A stretch of DNA of 64,000 nt, taken from Escherichia coli. GTDB lineage: Bacteria; Pseudomonadota; Gammaproteobacteria; Enterobacterales; Enterobacteriaceae. The DNA lies in assembly GCF_030013205.1 (NCBI RefSeq), contig NZ_CP122648.1; one strand, written 5' to 3'. The position numbers were made by a program, and so were the translations under genes. Of this stretch, positions 29,418-47,180 are shown in pieces. Below the pieces are notes generated by a model. The model saw nothing but the letters and a program-made list of their open reading frames with translations. It was not told the origin of the DNA and did no database searches. The stretch's first letter is position 1; each line of letters begins with the position of its first letter.

Positions 29418-29969
29418 ATGCATGACAATATTTGGTTTACATATAAAGCCCGTATCCAAGCGCACCATCGACTAGAATGGCTTGAAAAGCACTCTCAATT
29501 TATCCTCGTTTGGTATGCTATATTGAGTGCGGTACTTTCAATTGTAACGTTGCGATTTCCAAAAGTTCTAGGAGATAACACAGATATCGTTGCGGCAATA
29601 CTTTCGGTGGCCCTACTGGGTATTTCGCTGATCGTATCTAACCTAGATTTTCGTGGTCGAGCAATAGCCATGAGAAGGAATTATATTGCACTACAGCGAC
29701 TCTATTTTGACATTACCACCAGTCAACAGTTAACTCTTGAACAGAAAGAAAAATATTTTAATTTGCTCAATGAGGTTGAGAATCACCGTGACATAGATGA
29801 TAAAATTTCAAGGGTAACTCAAGTTGGACTTACGACGAGGATCCCCACACAAAAAGAAAAAATAATTGTTATTTTATGGATATTACTTCGAATATTTACT
29901 ACTGCCGCCCTTTATATACTCCCATTAATATATCTTTGGATTGACTATGACTGCAAGCAGAATTTTTAA
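29418..29969 (+). CDS. SLATT-like 2TM (+1 C-terminal TM) membrane effector candidate
   Basis: 183 aa. An N-terminal amphipathic helix (IWFTYKARIQAHHRLEWLEK) is followed by TM hairpin FILVWYAILSAVLSIVTL / IVAAILSVALLGISLIVSNL, a helical middle and a C-terminal TM IIVILWILLRIFTTAALYILPLIYLWI. RBS AAGGA upstream. The 3' end overlaps the RT start. Confidence 0.6.
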   Translation: MHDNIWFTYKARIQAHHRLEWLEKHSQFILVWYAILSAVLSIVTLRFPKVLGDNTDIVAAILSVALLGISLIVSNLDFRGRAIAMRRNYIALQRLYFDITTSQQLTLEQKEKYFNLLNEVENHRDIDDKISRVTQVGLTTRIPTQKEKIIVILWILLRIFTTAALYILPLIYLWIDYDCKQNF

Positions 29970-31317
29970 AAAGTCATTCTCGAAAAAAAACCTTCTAAAA
30001 GTATACACTGAAAAAATCAAAGAATCAGGAGCGATTGGCATAGATCGGATTCGCCCATCAAAACTTGATTTGACAATAAAAAATGAGATCGCTTTCATTT
30101 TTGAAAAGGTTAACTCTGGCAATTACAAATTTACAGCATATAAAGAAAAATTAATATCTAAAGGCGCTAACTCTACACCCAGACAGATTTCCATACCAAC
30201 TGCTAGGGACAGAATTACTCTTAGAGCTCTCTGTGAATGCCTTACGGAAATATATCCTAACTCCAGATTAAAACTACCACATACAGTAATTGACTCATTG
30301 AAAGAAGCATTAAACAGCAGTCTTTATGCTGAATATGCAAAAATAGATCTTAAAAGTTTCTATCCTTCAATTGAACATAAATTGATAATTAATGCAATAA
30401 AAAATAAAATTAGAAAAAAAGAAATTAGACAGTTAATAACATCATCATTAATCGTGCCTACTGTAAGTGGAACAACAGGAAGCAAAGGTATCCCGAATAA
30501 TACCAGAGGAGTACCTCAGGGATTAGCGATATCAAACATTTTAGCTGAAATATCACTATCTAATTTTGATGATGAAATCAATAAAATGCATGACATATGG
30601 TACATGCGATACGTTGATGACATTCTTATTTTAACACCAAAATATCAAGCAACAAAAATAGCTTCTCATATCATTGATAAGCTTCAATCATTAAATTTAA
30701 ACCCACATCCATTAAATGAAGAGAACTCAAAATCCAAAGTAGGCAGCTTGGATGAAAGTTTTAACTTTTTGGGATACCACATAGAAAATCGAGAATTATT
30801 GATAAAACATGAGAGCATTCTTAGATTTGAGTCATCTTTAGCAAGGATTTTTACTGCATACAGGCACGCTCTACTACAAGCTAAAAGTAAGCGTGATAAA
30901 GAACGAGCTGTTGCATATTGTCAGTGGAAACTAAATCTCAGAATTACGGGATGTGTGTTTGAAGGTAAACGATTGGGATGGGTATCGTACTTCTCACAAA
31001 TAACCTCAACAGCTCAACTTCGCTCTGTTAATCATACTATCAATAATCTTATCCGCCGATTCGGCCTTTCATCAGAAATAAAACCAAAGTCTTTGATTAA
31101 AACTTTCTATGAACTCCGCAGAGGTAGAGCGGAGACTTTTAAATACATACCTAACTTTGATAATTTACATATATCTCAGAAACGAGAACTTGTTTCTATG
31201 TGGATAGGTAAAGAGAAGGAAAAAAAACTTAGCAATAGTGAAATAGAGAGGAAGTTTAAATTTAAAATTGCGAAATCAGTAAAAGAGCTTGAAGAGGATA
31301 TCTCAGGAATATCATAG
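29947..31317 (+). CDS. Reverse transcriptase (non-retron, group-II-intron-like / UG-DRT-like)
   Basis: Motifs RQISIPTARDR, AKIDLKSFYPSI, RGVPQGLAISNILAEI, YMRYVDDILIL (YVDD at 30610-30621), FNFLGYHI and a maturase-like LGWVSYFSQ. ATG at 29947 (TTG at 29941 is also possible). Confidence 0.9.
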   Translation: MTASRIFKKSFSKKNLLKVYTEKIKESGAIGIDRIRPSKLDLTIKNEIAFIFEKVNSGNYKFTAYKEKLISKGANSTPRQISIPTARDRITLRALCECLTEIYPNSRLKLPHTVIDSLKEALNSSLYAEYAKIDLKSFYPSIEHKLIINAIKNKIRKKEIRQLITSSLIVPTVSGTTGSKGIPNNTRGVPQGLAISNILAEISLSNFDDEINKMHDIWYMRYVDDILILTPKYQATKIASHIIDKLQSLNLNPHPLNEENSKSKVGSLDESFNFLGYHIENRELLIKHESILRFESSLARIFTAYRHALLQAKSKRDKERAVAYCQWKLNLRITGCVFEGKRLGWVSYFSQITSTAQLRSVNHTINNLIRRFGLSSEIKPKSLIKTFYELRRGRAETFKYIPNFDNLHISQKRELVSMWIGKEKEKKLSNSEIERKFKFKIAKSVKELEEDISGIS

Positions 31318-37894: not shown

Positions 37895-38020
37895 ATGAAA
37901 AATGAGAGCAATTATCATTTATGCTCAATTAAACATCAGCATTATCGCAGCCCCTCACTGAAGGACTGCTGTAATGCTGATTGTTCAACATCAAAAAACC
38001 CAATCTGTTGCAAGTTATAA
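37895..38020 (+). CDS. Unannotated 41-codon Cys-rich small ORF
   Basis: GGGAGG lies 4 nt upstream of the ATG. It encodes MKNESNYHLCSIKHQHYRSPSLKDCCNADCSTSKNPICCKL (6 Cys including two CC pairs). It is below the ORF-track length cut-off, so coding status is unproven. Confidence 0.3.
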   Translation: MKNESNYHLCSIKHQHYRSPSLKDCCNADCSTSKNPICCKL

Positions 38021-38110
38021 AAGCAACAAACGACATTGCGCGTTAAGATTTTCTTAATATTTAAGAAATATATTTTTTAATCTCATTTATTTTTGCAAAA
38101 GACTTTTCAT

Positions 38111-38686
38111 ATGCAGCGTCGAGAAATAAAGAAAATTACTTATTTAATCACTTTGATTTTAACTACTCTTTTGTTTGTTTATTTTTTAAGAACACCCACC
38201 ACAATCAATATGAAACAGGCGCATAAAATAAATCAACAACACCAGACAATTTTCCTTATCCGTCACGGTGAACGATGTGACAGAAGCAAAAATGCATGTC
38301 TCTCAAGCAATAAAGGAATTACCGTCAATGGTGCCATTAAAGCTCGTGATTATGGAAAAATATTTAGCAATACTTTCCCGTCATTCAGCCTTTACTCCAC
38401 GGATACCATACGGACAATGCAGACAGCCTGTTTTTTCTCTGGAGGAAAAGCAGCCTCCCGGATACCGTTGGCTGCAACATGTGGACTTGATGCTGCAAAG
38501 AACATACTCAAATTGTCATCCGATAATAAAACTACCGTTATATTCACCCATAATCATTGCCTGACACAAATAGCAAAAAAAATGAAATGGTGGAAGTTAA
38601 AGCCAGAATATCTTGAAACACTGGTTCTTCATATCGAAAACAATCGTCTCATTCTTGACGGAAAACTGACTCACGATAAAGCGTAA
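38111..38686 (+). CDS. Ais/PmrG-like LPS core heptose(II)-phosphate phosphatase homologue (histidine phosphatase family)
   Basis: ..[85 protein letters not shown]..LDGKL parallels E. coli Ais (..[83 protein letters not shown]..LDGEF). Has an N-terminal signal anchor. Confidence 0.8.
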   Translation: [191 protein letters not shown]

Positions 38687-38757
38687 CAATCATTCAAAGA
38701 GTCAACATATTTTCTGCATTAACCCCGAACAGTTCCTCTGCCGGGGTTTTGTATTAG

Positions 38758-39141
38758 TTATCGCCTCAACTGAAAATGCGGTCCGTCTTTCAGTGTTTTC
38801 CAGTCCCCGCCCCATTCGATGGCAGTTCCCAGCTCTGCGGCAGCCTGCTTAAATGCCTGCGCTATTTTCTCGTACAGAGGCCAGTCCCATGACACCTGGC
38901 TGCCAACCCAGGCAACAACATCCACCGCATCACCGGTCAGGTGGCGGCTGTTCATGGTCTGGCTTTTCCCTTCCGCGACCAGCTGTTTCTGGCGTTCTTT
39001 CGTGCGCAGCCCTTCCGTAATACCGAAATCAACCTCCGTCAGCTCCAGCGCACGGCGAACGACAGCAACCAGCTGTGGTTTAACGCCCTCCAGATTCTTT
39101 TCGCTGCGACGACTAAATCTGAATTTACCCGACATATTCAC
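38758..39141 (-). CDS. Endolysin, peptidase M15 (L-alanyl-D-glutamate peptidase type)
   Basis: 127 aa with ..GITEGLRTKERQKQLVAEGKSQTMNSRHLTGDAVDVVAW..WGGDWKTLKDGPHFQL, the H..D..H zinc-peptidase pattern of M15 phage lysins. Confidence 0.85.
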   Translation of the reverse strand: MNMSGKFRFSRRSEKNLEGVKPQLVAVVRRALELTEVDFGITEGLRTKERQKQLVAEGKSQTMNSRHLTGDAVDVVAWVGSQVSWDWPLYEKIAQAFKQAAAELGTAIEWGGDWKTLKDGPHFQLRR

Positions 39142-39413
39142 CTCAACAATGGAAAGATTTTTGTGACGTTCCCGCGCGCGCGTATCACCAGCACGCAGAA
39201 CAGCAGATTAAAAAACACTTCAGGCCAGCCCGTTGCTAACGGGCGACCACACAGATAGCTGAGGGGCGCAAAGGCATACAGCAGCATCAGCAGCCAGGCC
39301 AGCCATGACATCAGCGGTTTATGTCTGGAATCACGGCGACGATAAAAAAAGAACGTCAGCACGATAACCGTGCATAACGCCACATTCAGCAATCCGGGAA
39401 GGTTACTTAACAT
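39138..39413 (-). CDS. Lysis-cassette membrane protein (holin partner/antiholin-like)
   Basis: 91 aa with 3 hydrophobic segments. Overlaps both the holin and endolysin genes. Confidence 0.4.
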   Translation of the reverse strand: MLSNLPGLLNVALCTVIVLTFFFYRRRDSRHKPLMSWLAWLLMLLYAFAPLSYLCGRPLATGWPEVFFNLLFCVLVIRARGNVTKIFPLLR

Positions 39414-39795
39414 TGCCGCCTCCTCCGCCCCTCAGGCGGGAGAACAGGCCGGACACCAGTGATGCGATATCCTGCTGGTGGATGAATGACAGAATCTTCA
39501 CTGACACCACCGATACCAGCACCGCACACAGCGCATCTGCCGATGTACCGTCATACCCTGTTTTTGATGTAATCCAGGCTGACAGCACACGTGCTCCCAG
39601 CACGCCGACGATAAACGACACCAGAAAATGCGCCGCCACACGCCAGGCGGAAATCTTCTGCGGCACAGTTGCCACAAACAAAGCCCCCGCGAACGCACCA
39701 AACACAATCCCGAAATCCGTTCCGGTGAACAGCCCGAATACCGTCGCCCCTCCGAGCGCAGCCGCCGTGCCGGAACCGGATAAGGGTTCAGACAT
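39403..39795 (-). CDS. Putative holin
   Basis: 130 aa with Gly/Ala-rich TM segments (AAALGGATVFGLFTG, IVFGAFAGALFVATV, AAHFLVSFIVGVLGARVL, ALCAVLVSVVSVKIL). It is the first gene of the lysis block. Confidence 0.6.
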   Translation of the reverse strand: MSEPLSGSGTAAALGGATVFGLFTGTDFGIVFGAFAGALFVATVPQKISAWRVAAHFLVSFIVGVLGARVLSAWITSKTGYDGTSADALCAVLVSVVSVKILSFIHQQDIASLVSGLFSRLRGGGGGNVK

Positions 39796-39811
39796 ACTTT
39801 TTTCTCCTGTA

Positions 39812-39838
39812 AATAAAAAAGGGCCACCAGCGGCCCGT
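39812..39838 (-). terminator. Rho-independent terminator upstream of the lysis genes
   Basis: GGGCC..GGCCC stem followed on the minus strand by TTTTTTATTT. Confidence 0.55.
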
Positions 39839-39963
39839 AAAAAAACAACACCCCGTCAAAGGCACCCGCAGATACCTTTTGTGTGGTGTATTCAGATTTG
39901 ACATACGCTGAGCAGGGCGAAGAAATGAAAAAGGCCCGCAGTAGCGAGCCATGAAGAAACTGA

Positions 39964-39991
39964 ATAAAAAAAACCGCCTGGTACGGCGGTT
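39964..39991 (-). terminator. Rho-independent terminator downstream of the prophage tRNA
   Basis: AACCGCC..GGCGGTT stem followed on the minus strand by TTTTTTTT. Confidence 0.6.
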
Positions 39992-40253
39992 AAGATGAAT
40001 TTCCAGGTTTTGCTTAATACGTGATTAATCTCAACGTTTTTTATAGATGTTAACAACATCGGAATGATGCATCACCGGCCCTGTCAGGAAATACAAAATC
40101 TCCACCGATAATGCACCATTACGCTGTTGTAAAAAGACAGCACTGGACTGTAACCGATATCACGTATTACAGAACAGGATGTGGATAAAGATTCAGGAAA
40201 ACATCCCACATATAATATGTCAGTGCCCAAAACAACTTGGTATCGTCTACTGC

Positions 40254-40328
<75 letters not shown>

Positions 40329-40745
40329 ATACTATGCGGTCTTCAGTAATCACACGAATTACCGTGAAAGCCAGCACTGGTCTTTCCGACGGTAGTAACA
40401 CCCCTGTGAACACCAAAATAACCGTCTTCCAGACCGACGAGAATACTAACGACATTTTTTCAGATATCAAAAATATATTTTGTTTTTAGTTTTTAATATA
40501 TGTATGCATCTGTATCAGAAATATACAATTTATATCATTACTAAATTAAAAACATTTCTCTGACGTCTGATTAAAACGTTCCTGTTCCAGTTCCGCGCCA
40601 ATCACACATGGTCATTGCGTTTTACCAGTCCATCGCCACTATCAGGCTGACCAGGGGACGCCCCACCCGAACTGCTGAGAATGCCAGGCACACAAAGAAT
40701 AATGCCCGCCAAAGCGTTCCTGCATACAATGACTGCAAAATTCAG

Positions 40746-41596
40746 TTATTCTTGAGCGGAGCCAGAACTCATCTCACTGAATGCAGCCATCCTGTAACCT
40801 TCCGGGGTGACCCCAAAATAACGCCTGAATACACTGATAAAATAAGATGTATTATTATAGCCACACTGCACAGCGATTCTGTTGATGGCACAGCTATATT
40901 GATGCAACAGCATTGCTGCCATTCTCATTCTCTCCGTAAGCAACAACTCACTGAAACATGTGCCTTCTTCTTTCAGTCTTTTTTTAACAAACTTTCACTC
41001 ATACATAACCGTGATGACACATCTCGCAGAGTCCAGTTTGCTGCAATGTCTGTATGAAACAACGCACCAAGCCTGCCGCTGATAGTACTGATACACGCGG
41101 TCATAAACGACGAAAACATTTTATCTGATGAAAAAAACGCCAGACACGAAAAGGAAAGCATTTCCGCTAAATTGTCCGTATGAATCTTTTCCTCATAAAG
41201 ATAATCAATCAGGATGCCCATCAATTCTGGCCTGGGAAAACTCATGCAAAGATATCGTGGCATTTTCCGGACTAAAACAACATCCTGTTTTACCCCACTA
41301 CGCAACAGGTAACGGCTAATTGTCGATTCACTGAGACTTATACGCCGAAAACATTCAGAAAAGGGCAATAACGGTCCAGCCCCTCCCCTGACAAGAAGTG
41401 CACTACCACTTTCCAGAGAGAGTACTTTTCCTTCGAAGAGCACAACAAACGGGGAATGAACAAAAATAACAGAACAGGCCTCATTCATATCAATATCCCT
41501 GACATTACTGGTCGCAAGATAAGTATATATCACTTTACAAAAATGCAAGCCGTGAGCCCCGAATTCACGACCACCAGCGTGTTTACTGTACTGCAC
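40746..41596 (-). pseudogene. AraC/XylS-family regulator (GadX/AppY-like) split by a frameshift in a homopolymer
   Basis: The 207-aa ORF ends ..CMSESLLKKD stop. The 66-aa ORF carries the second HTH (..INRIAVQCGYNNTSYFISVFRRYFGVTPEGYR). Adding one base to the T7 run at 40979-40985 restores ..SESLLKKRLKEEGTCFSELLLTERMRMAAMLL... Confidence 0.8.
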
Positions 41597-41767
41597 CAGG
41601 TTTACAGGTACAAAAAACCGCTCGACGGCGGGTTTAAGCTGTGTGGCGAAGTAACCACTCTTAACAGATTAAGATAAAATTTGCGGACCGCGGTAATTTT
41701 TTTTGCTAAATTAAAGCCATATAAAAAATAAGATCCATAAGAAATTATTAGTATACTAAGGTTTAAC

Positions 41768-42709
41768 ATGGCTACTATTGCGCAATCAAAGAAACAAAAA
41801 AAACTTAAAATTGGTTTTTACACCAGCAGTTCTGGGACTATCCGCAGCCATTCAGTTGCTAAGCAAGCAATTGAAAATCTGTATAATACTTGCGTAACCG
41901 TTACGAATAATCATTTTGATACCATCTATAGAAATAAAAAGTTAAAAATAGCTTTTATAAATAAAGATACAAAAGCTAAATATTTCTTCGGCTACATGTC
42001 ATGCTCACGAGAAGAGTATCTCCTTCCTTATATTGGTGATGAACACTGGAATGAGCACAACATACCACTAGATGATAAAAAATACATAGTCGAAAGAACC
42101 TATTTTTTATATTATTACGATAGTGATATTTTAATATTAACTCAAAATCATCTTGGGCCGAAAGAATCGGATTTAGCTTATCTGCTTTACAGCCAGAGTG
42201 GTAATCCTGGAAATAACTTTTCATTCCAAGCCATCTGGAAAAAAGAGAGCGTCAAAGAGCTACTTGAAACAGGAAGTACTTTGAGAAGTTGTGATATTGT
42301 CCTGGCTGCTCCCAGGAACTTTGATGCAACAAATTACCAGCTAAATAGTTCATTTTCTAAGGAACTGGTAAATATGATGGTAGGGCTGGGTGGAACACGT
42401 CTCAAGTTAAATCTAAGGGGACGTGCATCAGGGAGAGTAAAAGTCAAAGGTTATTTATCAGATCTCGTTAAGGATGGTATTAAAGAACTCCTTGAAAAAA
42501 TGCCGGGAATTGTAAAAAAAGCGGCAGTAACACAGCCCAAAAATACCGTTGAACAAAGTCTTCTTGATCAGGTACTCATTTCAGAAAAAAACATATATAC
42601 CGTTAATGGTTATGGCACTGATAGTGATGTTCTGCAAGCCATGATTTCTGCTAAAATTGATAACAATGAATACCTTAAGCAATACGATATCAGCAAAAAG
42701 AAGGTATAG
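41768..42709 (+). CDS. Orphan 313-aa cytoplasmic protein, first gene of a candidate two-gene defence cassette
   Basis: AT-rich ORF on the strand opposite to all neighbouring phage genes. I could recognise no catalytic motif. 3 nt separate it from the downstream membrane gene. Confidence 0.7.
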   Translation: MATIAQSKKQKKLKIGFYTSSSGTIRSHSVAKQAIENLYNTCVTVTNNHFDTIYRNKKLKIAFINKDTKAKYFFGYMSCSREEYLLPYIGDEHWNEHNIPLDDKKYIVERTYFLYYYDSDILILTQNHLGPKESDLAYLLYSQSGNPGNNFSFQAIWKKESVKELLETGSTLRSCDIVLAAPRNFDATNYQLNSSFSKELVNMMVGLGGTRLKLNLRGRASGRVKVKGYLSDLVKDGIKELLEKMPGIVKKAAVTQPKNTVEQSLLDQVLISEKNIYTVNGYGTDSDVLQAMISAKIDNNEYLKQYDISKKKV

Positions 42710-42712
42710 GAT

Positions 42713-43156
42713 ATGTTATTGAAATACTTAAGAAACCTGATTGTAAGTGTTTTTTGCACCTTGTTCCTACTGAGGTATATCCCTCAGATGGGGCATGCTG
42801 ACATACTTACAGCCTCCGGGGTTATTTCAACTGTATCCGGTATTTTATTTGGTTTTATTTTAGCCACAATATCAATTTTTAGTGCTGCTAGCGAAAACTC
42901 AAATGGAATAATAAAAGCATTAAAAAACAACAACATACTTCAAGTTATTATTGTAAATCTATTAACCGCAGGTGCATCTTTAATTACGGCATGCGTTATT
43001 GCTTTGATAGCAATGTTTGCCAATGAAAAGACATTGTTACATGGAGAAAAAATAGAATTTATTTTAATTATCGAATCTTTATCTCTTCTTATCATTTCAG
43101 TAATAACTTTTGCCTTTACATGGAGAAAAGTAAACTGGATACTCCCCCACATTTAA
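42713..43156 (+). CDS. Orphan 147-aa 4-TM membrane protein, second gene of the cassette
   Basis: Four hydrophobic helices (LIVSVFCTLFLL, VISTVSGILFGFILATISIFSAA, VIIVNLLTAGASLITACVIALIAMFA, FILIIESLSLLIISVITFAFTW). Confidence 0.7.
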   Translation: MLLKYLRNLIVSVFCTLFLLRYIPQMGHADILTASGVISTVSGILFGFILATISIFSAASENSNGIIKALKNNNILQVIIVNLLTAGASLITACVIALIAMFANEKTLLHGEKIEFILIIESLSLLIISVITFAFTWRKVNWILPHI

Positions 43157-43179
43157 AAAGGGCAGAAATGCCCTTTTTT
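43155..43179. terminator. Strong hairpin terminator between the cassette and Q (convergent)
   Basis: AAAAAGGGCA-GAAA-TGCCCTTTTT is a 10-bp stem with a GAAA loop and U-runs on both strands. Confidence 0.7.
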
Positions 43180-43542
43180 CTACTCCATTTCAAGTTTAAC
43201 ATCCAGCATTGAAAGGCATCCATCAATAAACCCTTCAGCCATCTGTATCTCTATACGTATCAATTTCTCATCTTTTTTGCGAGCTCTTGCAAGCTTTCTT
43301 TTCGAGATGCCATACAGGTAATGGGCCACAATCAAAGAATGCTCGTACGGTTTTCGCTTTTTAAGAAGAGCAAGACAACCTTCAATAATTAATGCATCAC
43401 TATCTGAACAAGCCTGACGTGTTTTGCTTGTATAGGGAAGAAGCCCTTTAAACCCAGCAGCTATAGGAGAATAGTCTACTCCTGAACTATCACTCGCCGC
43501 CCATGCTCCCCAACGATCCAGAACCATTTGAATATCACGCAT
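43180..43542 (-). CDS. Late-gene antiterminator Q (phage 21/82, QuuD-like family)
   Basis: ATG at 43542 gives MRDIQMVLDRWGAWAA..IAAGFKGLL..; compare DLP12 QuuD MRDIQMVLERWGAWAAN..IAAGFKGLI... The C-terminal ..AEGFIDGCLSMLDVKLEME has the same pattern. Confidence 0.85.
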   Translation of the reverse strand: MRDIQMVLDRWGAWAASDSSGVDYSPIAAGFKGLLPYTSKTRQACSDSDALIIEGCLALLKKRKPYEHSLIVAHYLYGISKRKLARARKKDEKLIRIEIQMAEGFIDGCLSMLDVKLEME

Positions 43543-43559
43543 CAACTTTCTCCACAAAA

Positions 43560-44555
43560 TCAGGCCAGCACGCCAGTTGCCAGCGCACGATCGATAAAAC
43601 GAAATATCAGCTCCAGCTGGGAGCCATACCTCTCTTCAAATGTCACGGTATCCGCATGCAGCTCGTCGTGATGCTTTCTGCACAAAGGCAACACAAAAAG
43701 GTCATGCGCTTTTGTTCCCATTCCACCCTGACCGTAACCTATCAGGTGGTGGGGATCATCAGCGGGCTTTCCACAACATGCACACGGCTGTGTCTTAACC
43801 CAGCGCGTGTACTTTTCATTAACCCAGCGGCGACGTTTTGGGCGTAACATAAAAGACTCCGGCGACTCCGGATCCACTTTCAGCGCCAGCACCTTTTTCG
43901 CCTTATCCTGGATGATGCTGGTGGCAGGAACCGAAGGCACAAGGTCACTTTCCCGGGTGACAGACGGCACAACAGGCTTCGGTAATCTCAGTGCCTTACG
44001 GGCTGCACTTTCCGGTAAGGCATCCGCCAGGTCATTACGAATCAGCCACCAGCACAGTTCCGGCATTGTCACAACGTGACTGTCATCAAAACCGAGATCC
44101 CGACGCACAACAGACAACACCCAGCGGGCACAGTTATCCGTTGCCATTGATTCCAGCCGTTCCGTGAACTGATCGCGCAGCTGGTTATCGCAGTGCCAGC
44201 ACAGACGGATTGCACCCGGAGCGTGTCGCATTGTGGTCATGTTCTCGCTGTGCCAGTCGGAATGAGGCCACTGGCAGCCTTTTTTACGAAGTAACCAGCT
44301 TTCAAGACATTCCACGCCACCAGCACGACGGATCACTGCCTCATTGCGGAACACGGCCCGAACGGCAGGATCATCCGCCAGCGGTTGTGACGCCGCGGGA
44401 ACGGCACCACTGGCGAAAGATGAATAATGCTCCGGCTCAGGCTCCAGCAGGACACGCCCCTGCATAAACAGGGGCATCAGCTCTGAACCGGGCCTGAACA
44501 ATACGATCCCCATACGCGGGGCAATTTCAGGGGTCAGTAGTGCTCTCACGGTCAC
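43560..44555 (-). CDS. DUF968-like (YdfU-family) prophage protein with HNH-like C-terminus
   Basis: 331 aa with C-terminal ..CACCGKPADDPHHLIGYGQGGMGTKAHDLFVLPLCRKHHDELH... Nin-region position upstream of Q. Confidence 0.6.
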   Translation of the reverse strand: MTVRALLTPEIAPRMGIVLFRPGSELMPLFMQGRVLLEPEPEHYSSFASGAVPAASQPLADDPAVRAVFRNEAVIRRAGGVECLESWLLRKKGCQWPHSDWHSENMTTMRHAPGAIRLCWHCDNQLRDQFTERLESMATDNCARWVLSVVRRDLGFDDSHVVTMPELCWWLIRNDLADALPESAARKALRLPKPVVPSVTRESDLVPSVPATSIIQDKAKKVLALKVDPESPESFMLRPKRRRWVNEKYTRWVKTQPCACCGKPADDPHHLIGYGQGGMGTKAHDLFVLPLCRKHHDELHADTVTFEERYGSQLELIFRFIDRALATGVLA

Positions 44556-44556
44556 C

Positions 44557-45366
44557 TCAATGAACGGTATCGAGCAGCTTTAACAGCTCAGGGAATCGGG
44601 ATTCGAAGAAATGCGGCTGCGTCTCGCGCGGATTTGCGGGACTGGTGATGTTCTTGCCGAACATGCAGCCTTTCGCTGTCAGCGACCAGAATTTTTTGAT
44701 GTTGTTAATCGCGGTACGGCTGTATCGTTCGCGTTGTTCAACGATCCCCAGCTTCGCCATCTGGTGATATGCCTGATTAGCCGTCAGGCGGATACCATAC
44801 TGTTTCAGCAGTGCACTCAGCGACAGCGTAGGGCGACTTGAGCCATCAGGCGCGTCAGCAGGAGCATCAATGGCATAGCGCGGTGCCAGATTCGGTAAGC
44901 CAACAGCCTCCTGGAGTTTCTGACAGGCACCAAGCACTGAAGAGTTAGACAGGTTTAACTCCCTGCGCATAAAGTCCAGCAGAATCACTCCAGCCTGCAT
45001 CTTGTCAGCAGCCTGCCCGGATAATTTTTCCGGTGCGCTGGTTACCATATCGAAAGTACGGATCACCTTCAGATGGAATGACGGGCTGATCCACATTGCA
45101 TAGGCATACACCAGTTCTTTGCAGACATACGTCCCCTGGTTATTTCCGCCATTAATGACGCTAACTGGTTGATTTTGTTCCAGAGGCGGAATTCCACCCT
45201 CGGTGAAAAGTTGTTCAATCAATTCACAGGTTTGCTTATTGGAGAGCCAGTATTTCGGGCGGTTTTTTTGTTCTCCCCCGGCTGCCCTGTGCAGATCGTT
45301 CAGGCTGTAACGCCCATAAGCATCACGACGAACTTCAATACCATCAATAACCATCAGATTATTCAT
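44557..45366 (-). CDS. KilA-N domain DNA-binding protein
   Basis: The N-terminal ..IDGIEVRRDAYGRYSLNDLHRAAGGEQKNRPKYWLSNKQT..GTYVCKELVYAYAMWISPSFHLKVI pattern is typical of KilA-N. Confidence 0.7.
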   Translation of the reverse strand: MNNLMVIDGIEVRRDAYGRYSLNDLHRAAGGEQKNRPKYWLSNKQTCELIEQLFTEGGIPPLEQNQPVSVINGGNNQGTYVCKELVYAYAMWISPSFHLKVIRTFDMVTSAPEKLSGQAADKMQAGVILLDFMRRELNLSNSSVLGACQKLQEAVGLPNLAPRYAIDAPADAPDGSSRPTLSLSALLKQYGIRLTANQAYHQMAKLGIVEQRERYSRTAINNIKKFWSLTAKGCMFGKNITSPANPRETQPHFFESRFPELLKLLDTVH

Positions 45367-45385
45367 ACTTCGTTTCTCCTCTTAA

Positions 45386-45589
45386 TCAGGCGGCTGCACC
45401 CGCCGGTTTCTCATACTTACTGATAGTGATCTCGACCTTCCCTTTCGGGATAACCGGTCCCCACTCCACCAGCATTCTTTTCACCTGTCTGTCGTCTTCC
45501 CACACACCCGCGTGGGTCAGGGCGTCAAACAGCGCCTTGTTATAGTTGTCCAGATCGCGGATCCGGTTATTTGCCGTTAAACTGTTCAT
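45386..45589 (-). pseudogene. RusA Holliday-junction resolvase, C-terminal stump
   Basis: 67 aa, ..RIRDLDNYNKALFDALTHAGVWEDDRQVKRMLVEWG.., aligns to the RusA C-terminal half (..[28 protein letters not shown]..). The N-terminal ~55 residues are missing. Confidence 0.7.
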
Positions 45590-46137
45590 GCGTTAGTTTC
45601 TCCACAGACACAAAACGCCACGACGCCCGGAGCTGCACACTCGCGGGCGTCACTCTTTTCTGGAGCGCAGAAAATTTTGTAGACCAGTGCCGCATGCTCC
45701 TGGAGCTTCGAAATTGACAGATACAATTCATCATTAATTGCTGTCTGCTCGTGTGGCTCCACTACCCCATCTTCGATTGCCGAACGAATCTGCTTTGAGT
45801 AACTCCCGATCTGTTCGATGACTTCCAGCAGGCGCTGGTTTATATCTGCGTTCTCTACTTCCTCAATTTCAGGAAGCGATACAAACACCCCACCAGCAGA
45901 CTGTGCGACAGCATCCGCAATGTAGTGAGTGCCAGCAGCACGCTGTAAAATCATTGCCCATCCCAGCGGGAAAATCTGATCGCCATCTGCACGAAGGCGG
46001 TTGAATAAAGCGTTCTCTGTAACATCCAGCCACTCAGCAGCTTCAGCGTAACCCCCCGGCAACGCCGCGATAGTTTTTCTGACAGCTTTCACGTACCACT
46101 CAGGCTGTTTTTCCACTTTCCAGTGATGATTACCCAC
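45586..46137 (-). CDS. Early regulatory protein, CII/CP76-like (e14 YmfL-like)
   Basis: 183 aa, directly downstream of and overlapping the cro-like gene. The family call is from memory of e14-type immunity regions only. Confidence 0.45.
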   Translation of the reverse strand: MGNHHWKVEKQPEWYVKAVRKTIAALPGGYAEAAEWLDVTENALFNRLRADGDQIFPLGWAMILQRAAGTHYIADAVAQSAGGVFVSLPEIEEVENADINQRLLEVIEQIGSYSKQIRSAIEDGVVEPHEQTAINDELYLSISKLQEHAALVYKIFCAPEKSDARECAAPGVVAFCVCGETNA

Positions 46138-46390
46138 GGCTTACCTCCTGTTCCTGTGGTTTAAACCCATTCTGGTTTTGGCTAGATTGAAAACGTGCCG
46201 GATAAAGAATCTGCATTTCGCTGATTTCACCCTTAAAAAAATTGGCCAGACGTTCTGCAAGATCGATAGATGGAATTTGTTCCAGTCTTTCAATACGACT
46301 CAGCGTCGCTGGATTGACCTGAACGCCAGCAGCAACATGCTGCAAAGTAAATCCGTGCGCCTTACGCACATTCCGTAATGGTGATTGCAT
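46130..46390 (-). CDS. Cro-like XRE-family HTH repressor
   Basis: 86 aa with ..RKAHGFTLQHVAAGVQVNPATLSRIERLEQIPSIDLAERLANFF... Divergent from cI across a 97-bp operator region. Confidence 0.7.
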   Translation of the reverse strand: MQSPLRNVRKAHGFTLQHVAAGVQVNPATLSRIERLEQIPSIDLAERLANFFKGEISEMQILYPARFQSSQNQNGFKPQEQEVSRG

Positions 46391-46404
46391 ATGACCTCCA
46401 CATA

Positions 46405-46467
46405 TTGCGTGATGAGCATATTATTTCACGCAAATATTTTGCGCAAGTTGATTTGCTTAACGCGCAA
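46405..46467. promoter_or_regulatory. OR-type operator region (TTGC-N7-GCAA sites)
   Basis: TTGCTTAACGCGCAA (46453-46467), TTGCGTGATGAGCAT (46405-46419) and the palindrome TTGCGCAA (46439-46446) lie between the divergent cro-like and cI genes. Confidence 0.45.
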
Positions 46468-46487
46468 TAAAGAAATGTAATAAACGC

Positions 46488-47180
46488 ATGAACATAGGAA
46501 ACCGAGTCAGACAACTTCGCCAGGCGAAGAACATGAAAATCGCCGATCTCGCTGAAGCAATAGGAGTGGATGCGGCGAATATCTCACGCCTGGAAACAGG
46601 TAAGCAGAAACAATTCACTGAACAAGCCCTGAGTAATATTGCCAAGAGCTTAGGTGTTGATATTGCTGATCTCTTTACCTCAGACTTCAAAAGTAATACT
46701 GTATGTAAAAACAGTATTAGTGAGGATGTTGCGCAGGTGAAGGATGTATTCCGTATTGAAATGCTGGATGTCAGTGCCAGTGCGGGAAATGGCCTTATCC
46801 AGGGCGGTGATGTCATTGATGTGATTCATGCCATTGAATACAGAACTGATAATGCTGTATCGATGTTTGGTGGACGGCCAGCCAATCACATTAAAGTTAT
46901 CAACGTTCGTGGGGACAGTATGTGTCCAACCATTGAGCCAGGAGATCTCATCTTCGTTGATGTCAGTATCAATCAGTTTGATGGAGATGGTATCTATGTA
47001 TTTGGTTTTGATGATAAAATTTATGTCAAACGACTGCAAATGATACCTGACAAACTACTGGTGATTTCTGATAACCAGATTTACCGTGAATGGGGAATTA
47101 CCAGCGAAAATGAACACCGGTTTATGGTCTTTGGAAAGGTCTTAATCAGCCAGTCACAAACCCTTAAGCGACACAATTAA
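46488..47180 (+). CDS. CI-type prophage repressor (HTH + S24 LexA-like autopeptidase)
   Basis: 230 aa with an N-terminal HTH (NRVRQLRQAKNMKIADLAEAIGVDAANISRLETGKQ), an Ala-Gly cleavage context (SASAGNG), and the catalytic GDSMCPTI Ser and VKRL Lys. Confidence 0.9.
   Translation: MNIGNRVRQLRQAKNMKIADLAEAIGVDAANISRLETGKQKQFTEQALSNIAKSLGVDIADLFTSDFKSNTVCKNSISEDVAQVKDVFRIEMLDVSASAGNGLIQGGDVIDVIHAIEYRTDNAVSMFGGRPANHIKVINVRGDSMCPTIEPGDLIFVDVSINQFDGDGIYVFGFDDKIYVKRLQMIPDKLLVISDNQIYREWGITSENEHRFMVFGKVLISQSQTLKRHN

Follow-up and report, generated by a model that had tools for sequence, protein, structure and literature searches.

The window analysed here, a stretch of 64,000 nucleotides (nt) of Escherichia coli contig NZ_CP122648.1 (assembly GCF_030013205.1), contains a lambdoid prophage in which two adjacent plus-strand genes form a cassette at positions 41705-43179. 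This cassette is probably a module for phage exclusion (abortive infection) made up of two genes of the RexAB type, a self-contained moron inserted between the antiterminator gene Q and the presumed late promoter/terminator element. The assignment is based on the RexA fold of the large protein, the RexB-like topology of the small protein, weak in-register homology of both to RexA and RexB, the co-conservation of the two genes and their genomic context. The pair is most likely a remote homologue, that is, a very distant and previously unrecognised relative of RexA and RexB, and its function, by analogy, is probably anti-phage. An earlier reading of the sequence by eye, called here the sequence-only reading, had proposed the two genes as a candidate novel defence system. 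A role in defence or abortive infection remains the best interpretation, but the system would be of the RexAB type rather than categorically new. Among the checks proposed at that time, a PADLOC search, a comparison of AlphaFold2 (AF2) models with Foldseek and a survey of gene neighbourhoods were carried out.

The gene pair and its probable relation to RexA and RexB

The rexA-like open reading frame (ORF; 41768-42709, plus strand) encodes a soluble, basic protein of 313 residues with an isoelectric point (pI) of 9.25. It is followed, after a spacer of 3 nt, by the rexB-like ORF (42713-43156, plus strand), which encodes a protein of 147 residues having four predicted transmembrane (TM) helices and a conserved central loop, SNGIIKALKNNNIL. 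The cassette has a G+C content of 34.0%, compared with 47-51% in its flanks and 49.5% in the whole window, in agreement with the earlier description of two AT-rich ORFs separated by 3 nt. The large ORF matches PHROG 7651 (E 1e-151), the small ORF matches PHROG 8552 (E 1e-63), and homologues of both can be followed down to about 20% identity. Because of these matches and the many homologues, both ORFs are taken to be real genes and not chance ORFs. The data support the description of 41705-43179 as a self-contained two-gene moron of foreign composition within a lambdoid prophage.

The sequence-only reading could assign no motif to the large protein. Nevertheless, the protein exceeds the gathering threshold of Pfam DUF6731 (PF20505), which is 27, by scoring 41.4 bits (E 1.7e-10). 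In the chromosome of E. coli K_EC180, with which the region shares 100% identity, it carries the name 'DUF6731 family protein', given by RefSeq and the Prokaryotic Genome Annotation Pipeline (PGAP). Searches of PADLOC, NCBIfam and Pfam with both proteins found no defence-family match, DUF6731 being the only family recognised. In the phages vB_EcoS-733R5 and 716R3 the DUF6731 gene (ON470608.1, 30253-31191) is mislabelled as a 'portal (connector) protein'.

The AF2 model of the large protein was built from 32 homologues and has a predicted local distance difference test (pLDDT) score of 81. Structural comparison of this model revealed the two-domain, RdgC-like fold of RexA, and the structural alignment with lambda RexA (PDB 8TWQ) has a sequence identity of about 14%. 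The lower fold matches are CHL4, IML3, CENP-N and RdgC, which are the reported structural neighbours of RexA itself (PMC11077077). The validated RexApp of Pseudomonas putida has a score of just 8.8 to the same RexA entry (PMC12894663). By analogy with the known Rex systems the large protein, which has this fold and a basic pI, would probably be a dimeric, non-specific DNA-binding protein.

An exhaustive profile search collected 241 clusters of large-protein relatives at 50% identity, most of them 285-305 residues long and originating from Enterobacterales, Vibrio, Pseudomonas and metagenomes. Eighty of 86 sampled relatives match DUF6731, and none of the 86 matches Pfam RexA. The hhalign alignment of a broad DUF6731 profile with a 25-sequence profile of the RexA family begins at an N-terminal K-x-GFY that is common to both families and covers 220 collinear columns, with a score of 28.6 (E 0.0031). 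Shuffling the columns of the template within blocks gave scores of 15.2 +/- 2.7 with a maximum of 23.6; the observed score was reached in none of 60 shuffles, and the reversed template scored 18.8. When the family profiles were compared by hhalign with the single sequences of lambda RexA and RexB and of mycobacteriophage Sbash gp30 and gp31, no significant match was obtained, so that the usable signal came from comparisons of profile with profile. As the signal is confined to comparisons of this kind, the large protein is best described as a putative remote relative of RexA that lies outside PF15969. Sequence searches of the PDB, whether by the single protein or by the broad profile of its family, returned only chance-level matches such as MerA and eIF2-alpha.

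The small protein has four hydrophobic segments, and its AF2 model (pLDDT 83) is a bundle of four long helices. The lysine and arginine residues at the N-terminus, in the central loop and at the C-terminus, as read from the sequence, fit an orientation in which both termini are cytoplasmic. The small protein is thus predicted to be a four-TM inner-membrane protein with a cytoplasmic central loop, and the soluble component paired with a four-helix membrane component that had been recognised earlier is supported at the level of prediction. It is similar to RexB in length (147 and 144 residues, respectively), pI (9.1 and 9.3) and grand average of hydropathy (1.12 and 0.98). The PGAP annotation starts the small gene at Met26 (122 residues; locus L002, 10192-10560), an annotation error by which the conserved first TM helix is lost.

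A profile of 14 partner sequences aligned by hhalign with a four-sequence RexB profile gave a score of 26.7 (E 0.001) over 47 columns. The match comprises the second TM helix and the central loop in the same register, residues 32-81 of the window protein corresponding to residues 39-85 of RexB. Shuffled controls, made in two ways, had scores of 12-14 +/- 2.6-2.9 with a maximum of 23.7; none of 100 reached the observed value, and the reversed template scored 13.0. Within the small-protein family, conservation is highest in the second TM helix and the central loop, and outside the membrane the central loop is the best conserved part.

Taken alone, the small protein has no specific structural match. 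A Foldseek search of the BFVD viral models gave no match at E <=0.001. The second-best fold match in this database is a 165-residue protein of mycobacteriophage Sbash (E 0.024, probability 1.0, TM-score 0.55/0.50). This is the length of the product of Sbash gene 31, and the protein is equated with gp31 on its length alone. Sbash gp31 serves as the four-TM effector in gp30/gp31, a Rex-like system proven by experiment, in which the substitutions R70A and D73A within gp31's central cytoplasmic loop abolish defence (PMC6426596).

The survey of gene neighbourhoods, which were obtained by exact-protein look-ups, showed that the pair is kept together. In each of the 20 loci that were fetched, with large-gene relatives ranging from 99.9% to about 18% identity, the large gene is followed by a small four-TM gene, which in every locus examined either overlaps it or starts within about 30 nt of it. 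The pair is found in Pectobacterium (62% identity), at two loci in Xenorhabdus (43-46%), as a divergent E. coli allele (44%), on a Vibrio chromosome and in a Vinavirales temperate element (38-39%), in Pseudomonas phage AUS531phi (22%) and in five metagenomic members of DUF6731 (about 18-22%). In E. coli, in Pectobacterium and at one of the Xenorhabdus loci, the pair converges on a Q gene of the PF06530 type or, in locus L008, on a Q-like ORF recognised by eye. In phage AUS531phi (locus L028, 2096-4282) and on a metagenomic contig (L023, 530-2543) the pair stands directly after a cI-type repressor gene on the same strand, which is the cI-rexA-rexB layout of lambda. In a control with three genuine RexA homologues, a RexB gene came after each of them, and the cI-adjacent layout was seen in two. 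The small gene of AUS531phi is probably annotated too short, for the ORF is open upstream and its extension would gain a first TM helix.

In the Vibrio phage 10N.286.54.F4_PE001 (Vinavirales; L029, 1389-2896) the pair adjoins the integrase gene of a 14.6-kb tectivirus-like temperate element, and the module thus moves between very different mobile elements. Citrobacter braakii ATCC 51113 has a large gene of 99% identity (L006, 6001-6942) with a stop at codon 8 and an intact small gene. The stop codon may represent inactivation of the sensor or trigger component.

The insertion site and the surrounding prophage

The cassette is situated between Q (43180-43557, minus strand; PF06530, Pfam E 5.2e-52), which is its convergent neighbour and forms the right boundary of the insertion, and a conserved Q-downstream element (41612-41704, minus strand), which forms the left boundary and lies outside the cassette proper. 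In the Shiga toxin (Stx) phage 1720a-02, the Q of which is 73% identical to that of the window, the same element begins directly after the Q stop codon. In the window the element runs from 41704 to 41612 on the minus strand and is separated from Q by the cassette. Of the 5,426 complete E. coli genomes, about 2,400 have the core of the element (41667-41612, 56 nt) at 96% identity (compare L005, 3001-3056), and in the prophage DLP12 it is found about 120 nt upstream of essD. The core ends with a terminator-like hairpin and a run of T residues at 41629-41617. A sub-motif, TTTGCGGACCGCG(G/C)TAAT (41677-41697), is invariant even in the Pectobacterium prophage. An Rfam scan of 38000-47000 found only a tRNA, and the element matches no described RNA family.

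In canonical Q cassettes the Q gene is followed by the promoter PR', a pause element, a terminator and the late genes (bioRxiv 10.1101/651190). On account of this order, of the position of the element directly after Q in 1720a-02, of its conservation and of its terminator hairpin, 41612-41704 is interpreted as the putative late promoter, initial transcribed region with the pause, and terminator for this type of Q. According to the sequence-only reading, the pR'/qut region had been replaced. The element is intact, having been displaced to the far side of the cassette, and 41705-43179 is therefore an insertion between Q and the presumed Q target and not a replacement.

The 44%-identical E. coli allele occupies the same position relative to the element, which ends 93 nt before the gene, as compared with 103 nt in the window. 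In DLP12 the same slot, between quuD and the element, is filled by the nmpC porin gene and IS5. The junction of Q and the late promoter thus looks like a recurrent moron slot, which in lambdoid phages with a PF06530-type Q holds exchangeable cargo (alleles of the pair, or nmpC in DLP12). Knowledge of the slot should be useful for annotating prophages and for mining their cargo.

It had also been supposed that this is the locus at which Stx phages carry stx, which is inexact. In 1720a-02, stx2 is situated beyond the element, downstream of it and in sense orientation in the late operon, whereas the cassette is upstream of the element and antisense. The two slots are therefore different, and a late-operon moron of the stx type, which is Q-dependent, in sense orientation and downstream of pR'/tR', was ruled out.

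The cassette leader (41705-41767, plus strand) is AT-rich and allele-specific. Phage cdtI carries an identical leader and Citrobacter a nearly identical one. With the leader of the divergent E. coli allele (L012) no alignment is possible, whereas the element to its left can be aligned. The leader presumably contains the cassette's own promoter, and a ribosome-binding site, TAAGGT, is placed 7 nt before the ATG.

At the opposite end, the sequence AAAAAGGGCAgaaaTGCCCTTTTT(T) connects the stop codon of the small gene (43154-43156) with that of Q (43180-43182, minus strand). Almost all of the 23 nt separating them belongs to a hairpin, AAAAAGGGCA-gaaa-TGCCCTTTTT, which forms a bidirectional intrinsic terminator at 43155-43179 with a 10-bp stem serving both strands of the convergent junction. 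The hairpin was overlooked by a consensus promoter scan. It was then confirmed by folding, the plus strand giving -13.4 kcal/mol (z -4.2) and the minus strand -13.0 kcal/mol, as the sequence-only reading had anticipated when it described a strong bidirectional hairpin abutting the Q stop. In the alleles L012 and L008, inverted repeats of unrelated sequence can be seen by eye at the same position between the small gene and Q. The terminator would insulate the pair from Q transcription.

The prophage adjoins prfC and is a remnant, in which RusA is truncated and the tail-tip gene frameshifted; the annotation of the prophage stretches examined lists neither head nor large-terminase genes. In this decayed prophage the cassette is intact, and it shares 99.9% identity with orf54/orf53 in the complete genome of phage cdtI. 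Together with the foreign composition, this agrees with a moron of benefit to the host. The homology to cdtI spans 41563-45570. To the left of it, cdtI has orf55, a methylase gene and S/R/Rz, whereas the window has a split AraC gene, tRNA-Gly, holin genes and an M15 peptidase gene. Among the 5,426 complete E. coli genomes only 24 carry the large gene or a relative detectable by tblastn, as do 6 of 50,697 phage records. The cassette had been described as containing the only plus-strand genes in 15 kb, which overstated the case. The uninterrupted minus-strand block extends over 7.6 kb (38758-46390) and is bounded by plus-strand genes for a phosphatase (38093-38686) and a cI-type repressor (46488-47180).

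The first of these bounding genes is itself a second AT-rich moron (G+C content 0.32-0.40), annotated as lipopolysaccharide core heptose(II)-phosphate phosphatase and located just beyond the lysis genes. The AraC regulator noted in the sequence-only reading does belong to that family, but its gene (40746-41596, minus strand) is split into a 207-residue N-terminal ORF (40973-41596) and a 66-residue helix-turn-helix ORF (40746-40946), and is probably a pseudogene. It has the orientation of the late operon and the position at which Stx phages carry stx. The late region also has, between the Q-downstream element and the holin genes, a tRNA-Gly gene with the anticodon TCC (40254-40328, minus strand). 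Beside a DinI-like gene, at the end of the prophage nearest to prfC, an ORF for a SLATT-domain protein (29418-29969, plus strand) overlaps a reverse-transcriptase ORF (29941-31317, plus strand). These two look like a defence pair of the retron type or of the defence-associated reverse transcriptase (DRT) type, in which case the remnant prophage may carry two defence modules.

Proposed mechanism and competing explanations

The proposed mechanism is modelled on lambda RexAB, Sbash gp30/gp31, the system of Gordonia phage CarolAnn and RexABpp of P. putida. The 313-residue protein with the RexA fold would be a cytoplasmic sensor, probably a dimeric, non-specific DNA binder. Upon infection by another phage the sensor would activate its 147-residue, four-helix partner in the inner membrane. 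The partner would then form a channel or pore and, by depolarising or permeabilising the membrane, cause the membrane potential and the ATP level to collapse. The resulting arrest of the cell would abort the infection. The pair would probably be expressed in the lysogen from its own promoter, with the bidirectional terminator separating it from Q. What is proposed for this pair by analogy with the systems named above comprises the dimerisation and DNA binding of the sensor, its trigger, the channel activity of the partner, expression in the lysogen and the phenotype of defence.

A number of observations weigh against a RexAB-type module. The Pfam and PADLOC models of RexA (PF15969) match neither the large protein nor its 32 close and 86 distant relatives at E values up to 1-10, and those of RexB (PF15968) do not match the small protein; in a control, the PADLOC RexA and RexB models did recognise the lambda proteins. 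Both profile-profile matches are weak, with E values of about 1e-3 and hhalign probabilities of only 10-21%. Lambda RexB is absent from the top 50 BFVD fold matches of the small protein. The window pair is located 3.3 kb from the repressor gene and is transcriptionally unlinked to it, and so is not part of an immunity region co-transcribed with cI; the location downstream of cI is the lambda arrangement and is not universal, Sbash and Butters being different. A consensus promoter scan found no sigma-70 consensus promoter upstream of the cassette. None of about 8 million papers searched mentions DUF6731, and the literature searches found no paper that ties the cassette to Rex and no experiment on the family.

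The most closely related alternative retains a RexAB-like ancestry and reverses the roles, such that the RexA-like cytosolic protein is the effector or toxin and the membrane partner sequesters it until infection. Mycobacteriophage Butters gp30/gp31 is described as a reversed-role system of this kind in the summary given in PMC12894663. The data obtained here fit either component as the effector, and the codon-8 stop in the C. braakii large gene, next to an intact small gene, fits the loss of a toxic or triggering component. However, the membrane protein is the effector in four of the five Rex-like systems described (PMC12894663), and the strongest conservation in the small family falls on the second TM helix and the central cytoplasmic loop, which makes the reversed roles improbable. 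The prospects are also poor for a developmental regulator, a RexA-like DNA binder that tunes the lysis-lysogeny decision or the early-to-late switch of its own prophage with exclusion being incidental. This explanation would account for the direct contact of the cassette with the Q target element at 41612-41704, and lambda RexA does act on the CI/Cro bistable switch independently of RexB (PMC11077077). It would not account for the constant retention of the small membrane gene, for the occurrence of the pair without a Q or cI context (on the Vibrio chromosome, and beside the integrase gene in the Vinavirales element) or for an intact cassette in a remnant prophage that is incapable of completing the lytic cycle.

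A membrane moron without a role in defence, such as a holin or antiholin modulator, a superinfection-exclusion protein blocking injection or a transporter-like protein with a cytoplasmic partner, is suggested by the lysis genes nearby, by the small protein having no specific structural match on its own and by the ability of the slot to carry non-defence genes such as the nmpC porin of DLP12. The cassette is nevertheless convergent to the late operon and has its own terminator, the pair is co-conserved where lysis genes are absent, and the partner of the small protein has the RexA fold; such a role is very improbable. A Kiwa-like system, consisting of a KwaA-like four-TM sensor and a KwaB-like DUF4868 effector, had been mentioned as a resemblance in the sequence-only reading. 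The likeness consists only of rough sizes and of the pairing of a soluble with a four-TM protein. As there is no KwaA, KwaB or DUF4868 signal, as the gene order is opposite and as the structural match is to RexA, Kiwa was rejected and has next to no likelihood.

The RexAB-type interpretation can be extended, although the extension is itself improbable. In this form, a RexAB superfamily would have a separate, widespread branch, consisting of DUF6731 and its four-TM partner and responding to triggers of its own. Lambdoid phages with a PF06530-type Q would have taken up the pair at a site between Q and the late promoter that is dedicated to exchange. Read-through by convergent, antiterminated transcription from pR would silence the pair upon induction of its own prophage, providing built-in self-immunity, and the Q-loading site next to the cassette might be a further target of the RexA-like DNA binder.

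Comparison with known exclusion systems

RexAB is the oldest known abortive-infection system, and only five Rex-like systems have been described (PMC12894663), a small family that the pair would extend. Linking DUF6731 and its unnamed partner to RexA and RexB provides a testable hypothesis for the role of 241 protein clusters, and it exposes a gap in detection, since the PADLOC and Pfam models of RexA and RexB overlook such pairs. The E. coli alleles, which are 44-100% identical, are tractable and would allow a comparative study of what a RexA-fold sensor recognises. Phage cdtI, the cytolethal distending toxin phage, has the same cassette, and the pair may contribute to the resistance of toxin-converting prophages and their host cells against other phages.

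RdgC and the kinetochore proteins CHL4, IML3 and CENP-N have a related fold, but their matches are much weaker, they have no membrane partner and their biology is unrelated. Kiwa is an anti-phage system with a four-TM protein and a soluble protein of about 310 residues, but its genes are in the opposite order, and the pair matches neither DUF4868 nor the KwaA and KwaB profiles.

The likeness to lambda RexAB (PF15969/PF15968) extends to the organization of the genes, in which a soluble-protein gene is tightly linked to a following gene for a small membrane protein of about 145 residues with four TM helices. Both proteins have weak in-register profile similarity to those of lambda, the carriers are temperate lambdoid phages, and distant members of the pair stand after a cI-type repressor. 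However, the pair belongs to DUF6731 and an unnamed family missed by the Pfam and PADLOC RexA and RexB models, and the large protein is 34 residues longer than lambda RexA. The pair is located at the junction of Q and the late promoter, convergent with Q, and has its own leader and bidirectional terminator in place of co-transcription with cI.

Sbash gp30/gp31 and CarolAnn gp44/gp43 likewise combine a prophage-expressed, RexA-like cytoplasmic protein with a four-TM effector in which the central cytoplasmic loop is functionally important. The Sbash pair, too, stands apart from the repressor; in Sbash it comes right after the lysis genes. These actinophage systems have no detectable sequence similarity to the pair, their RexA-like proteins are 337-372 residues long, and their hosts and triggers are different. 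RexABpp (PP_5643/PP_5644) of prophage P1 in P. putida, which has been shown to defend its host, to bind DNA and to damage membranes, differs from the pair in that RexApp is larger (37.5 kDa when His-tagged) and RexBpp has more than 181 residues. Like the cassette described here, it is carried by a cryptic prophage.

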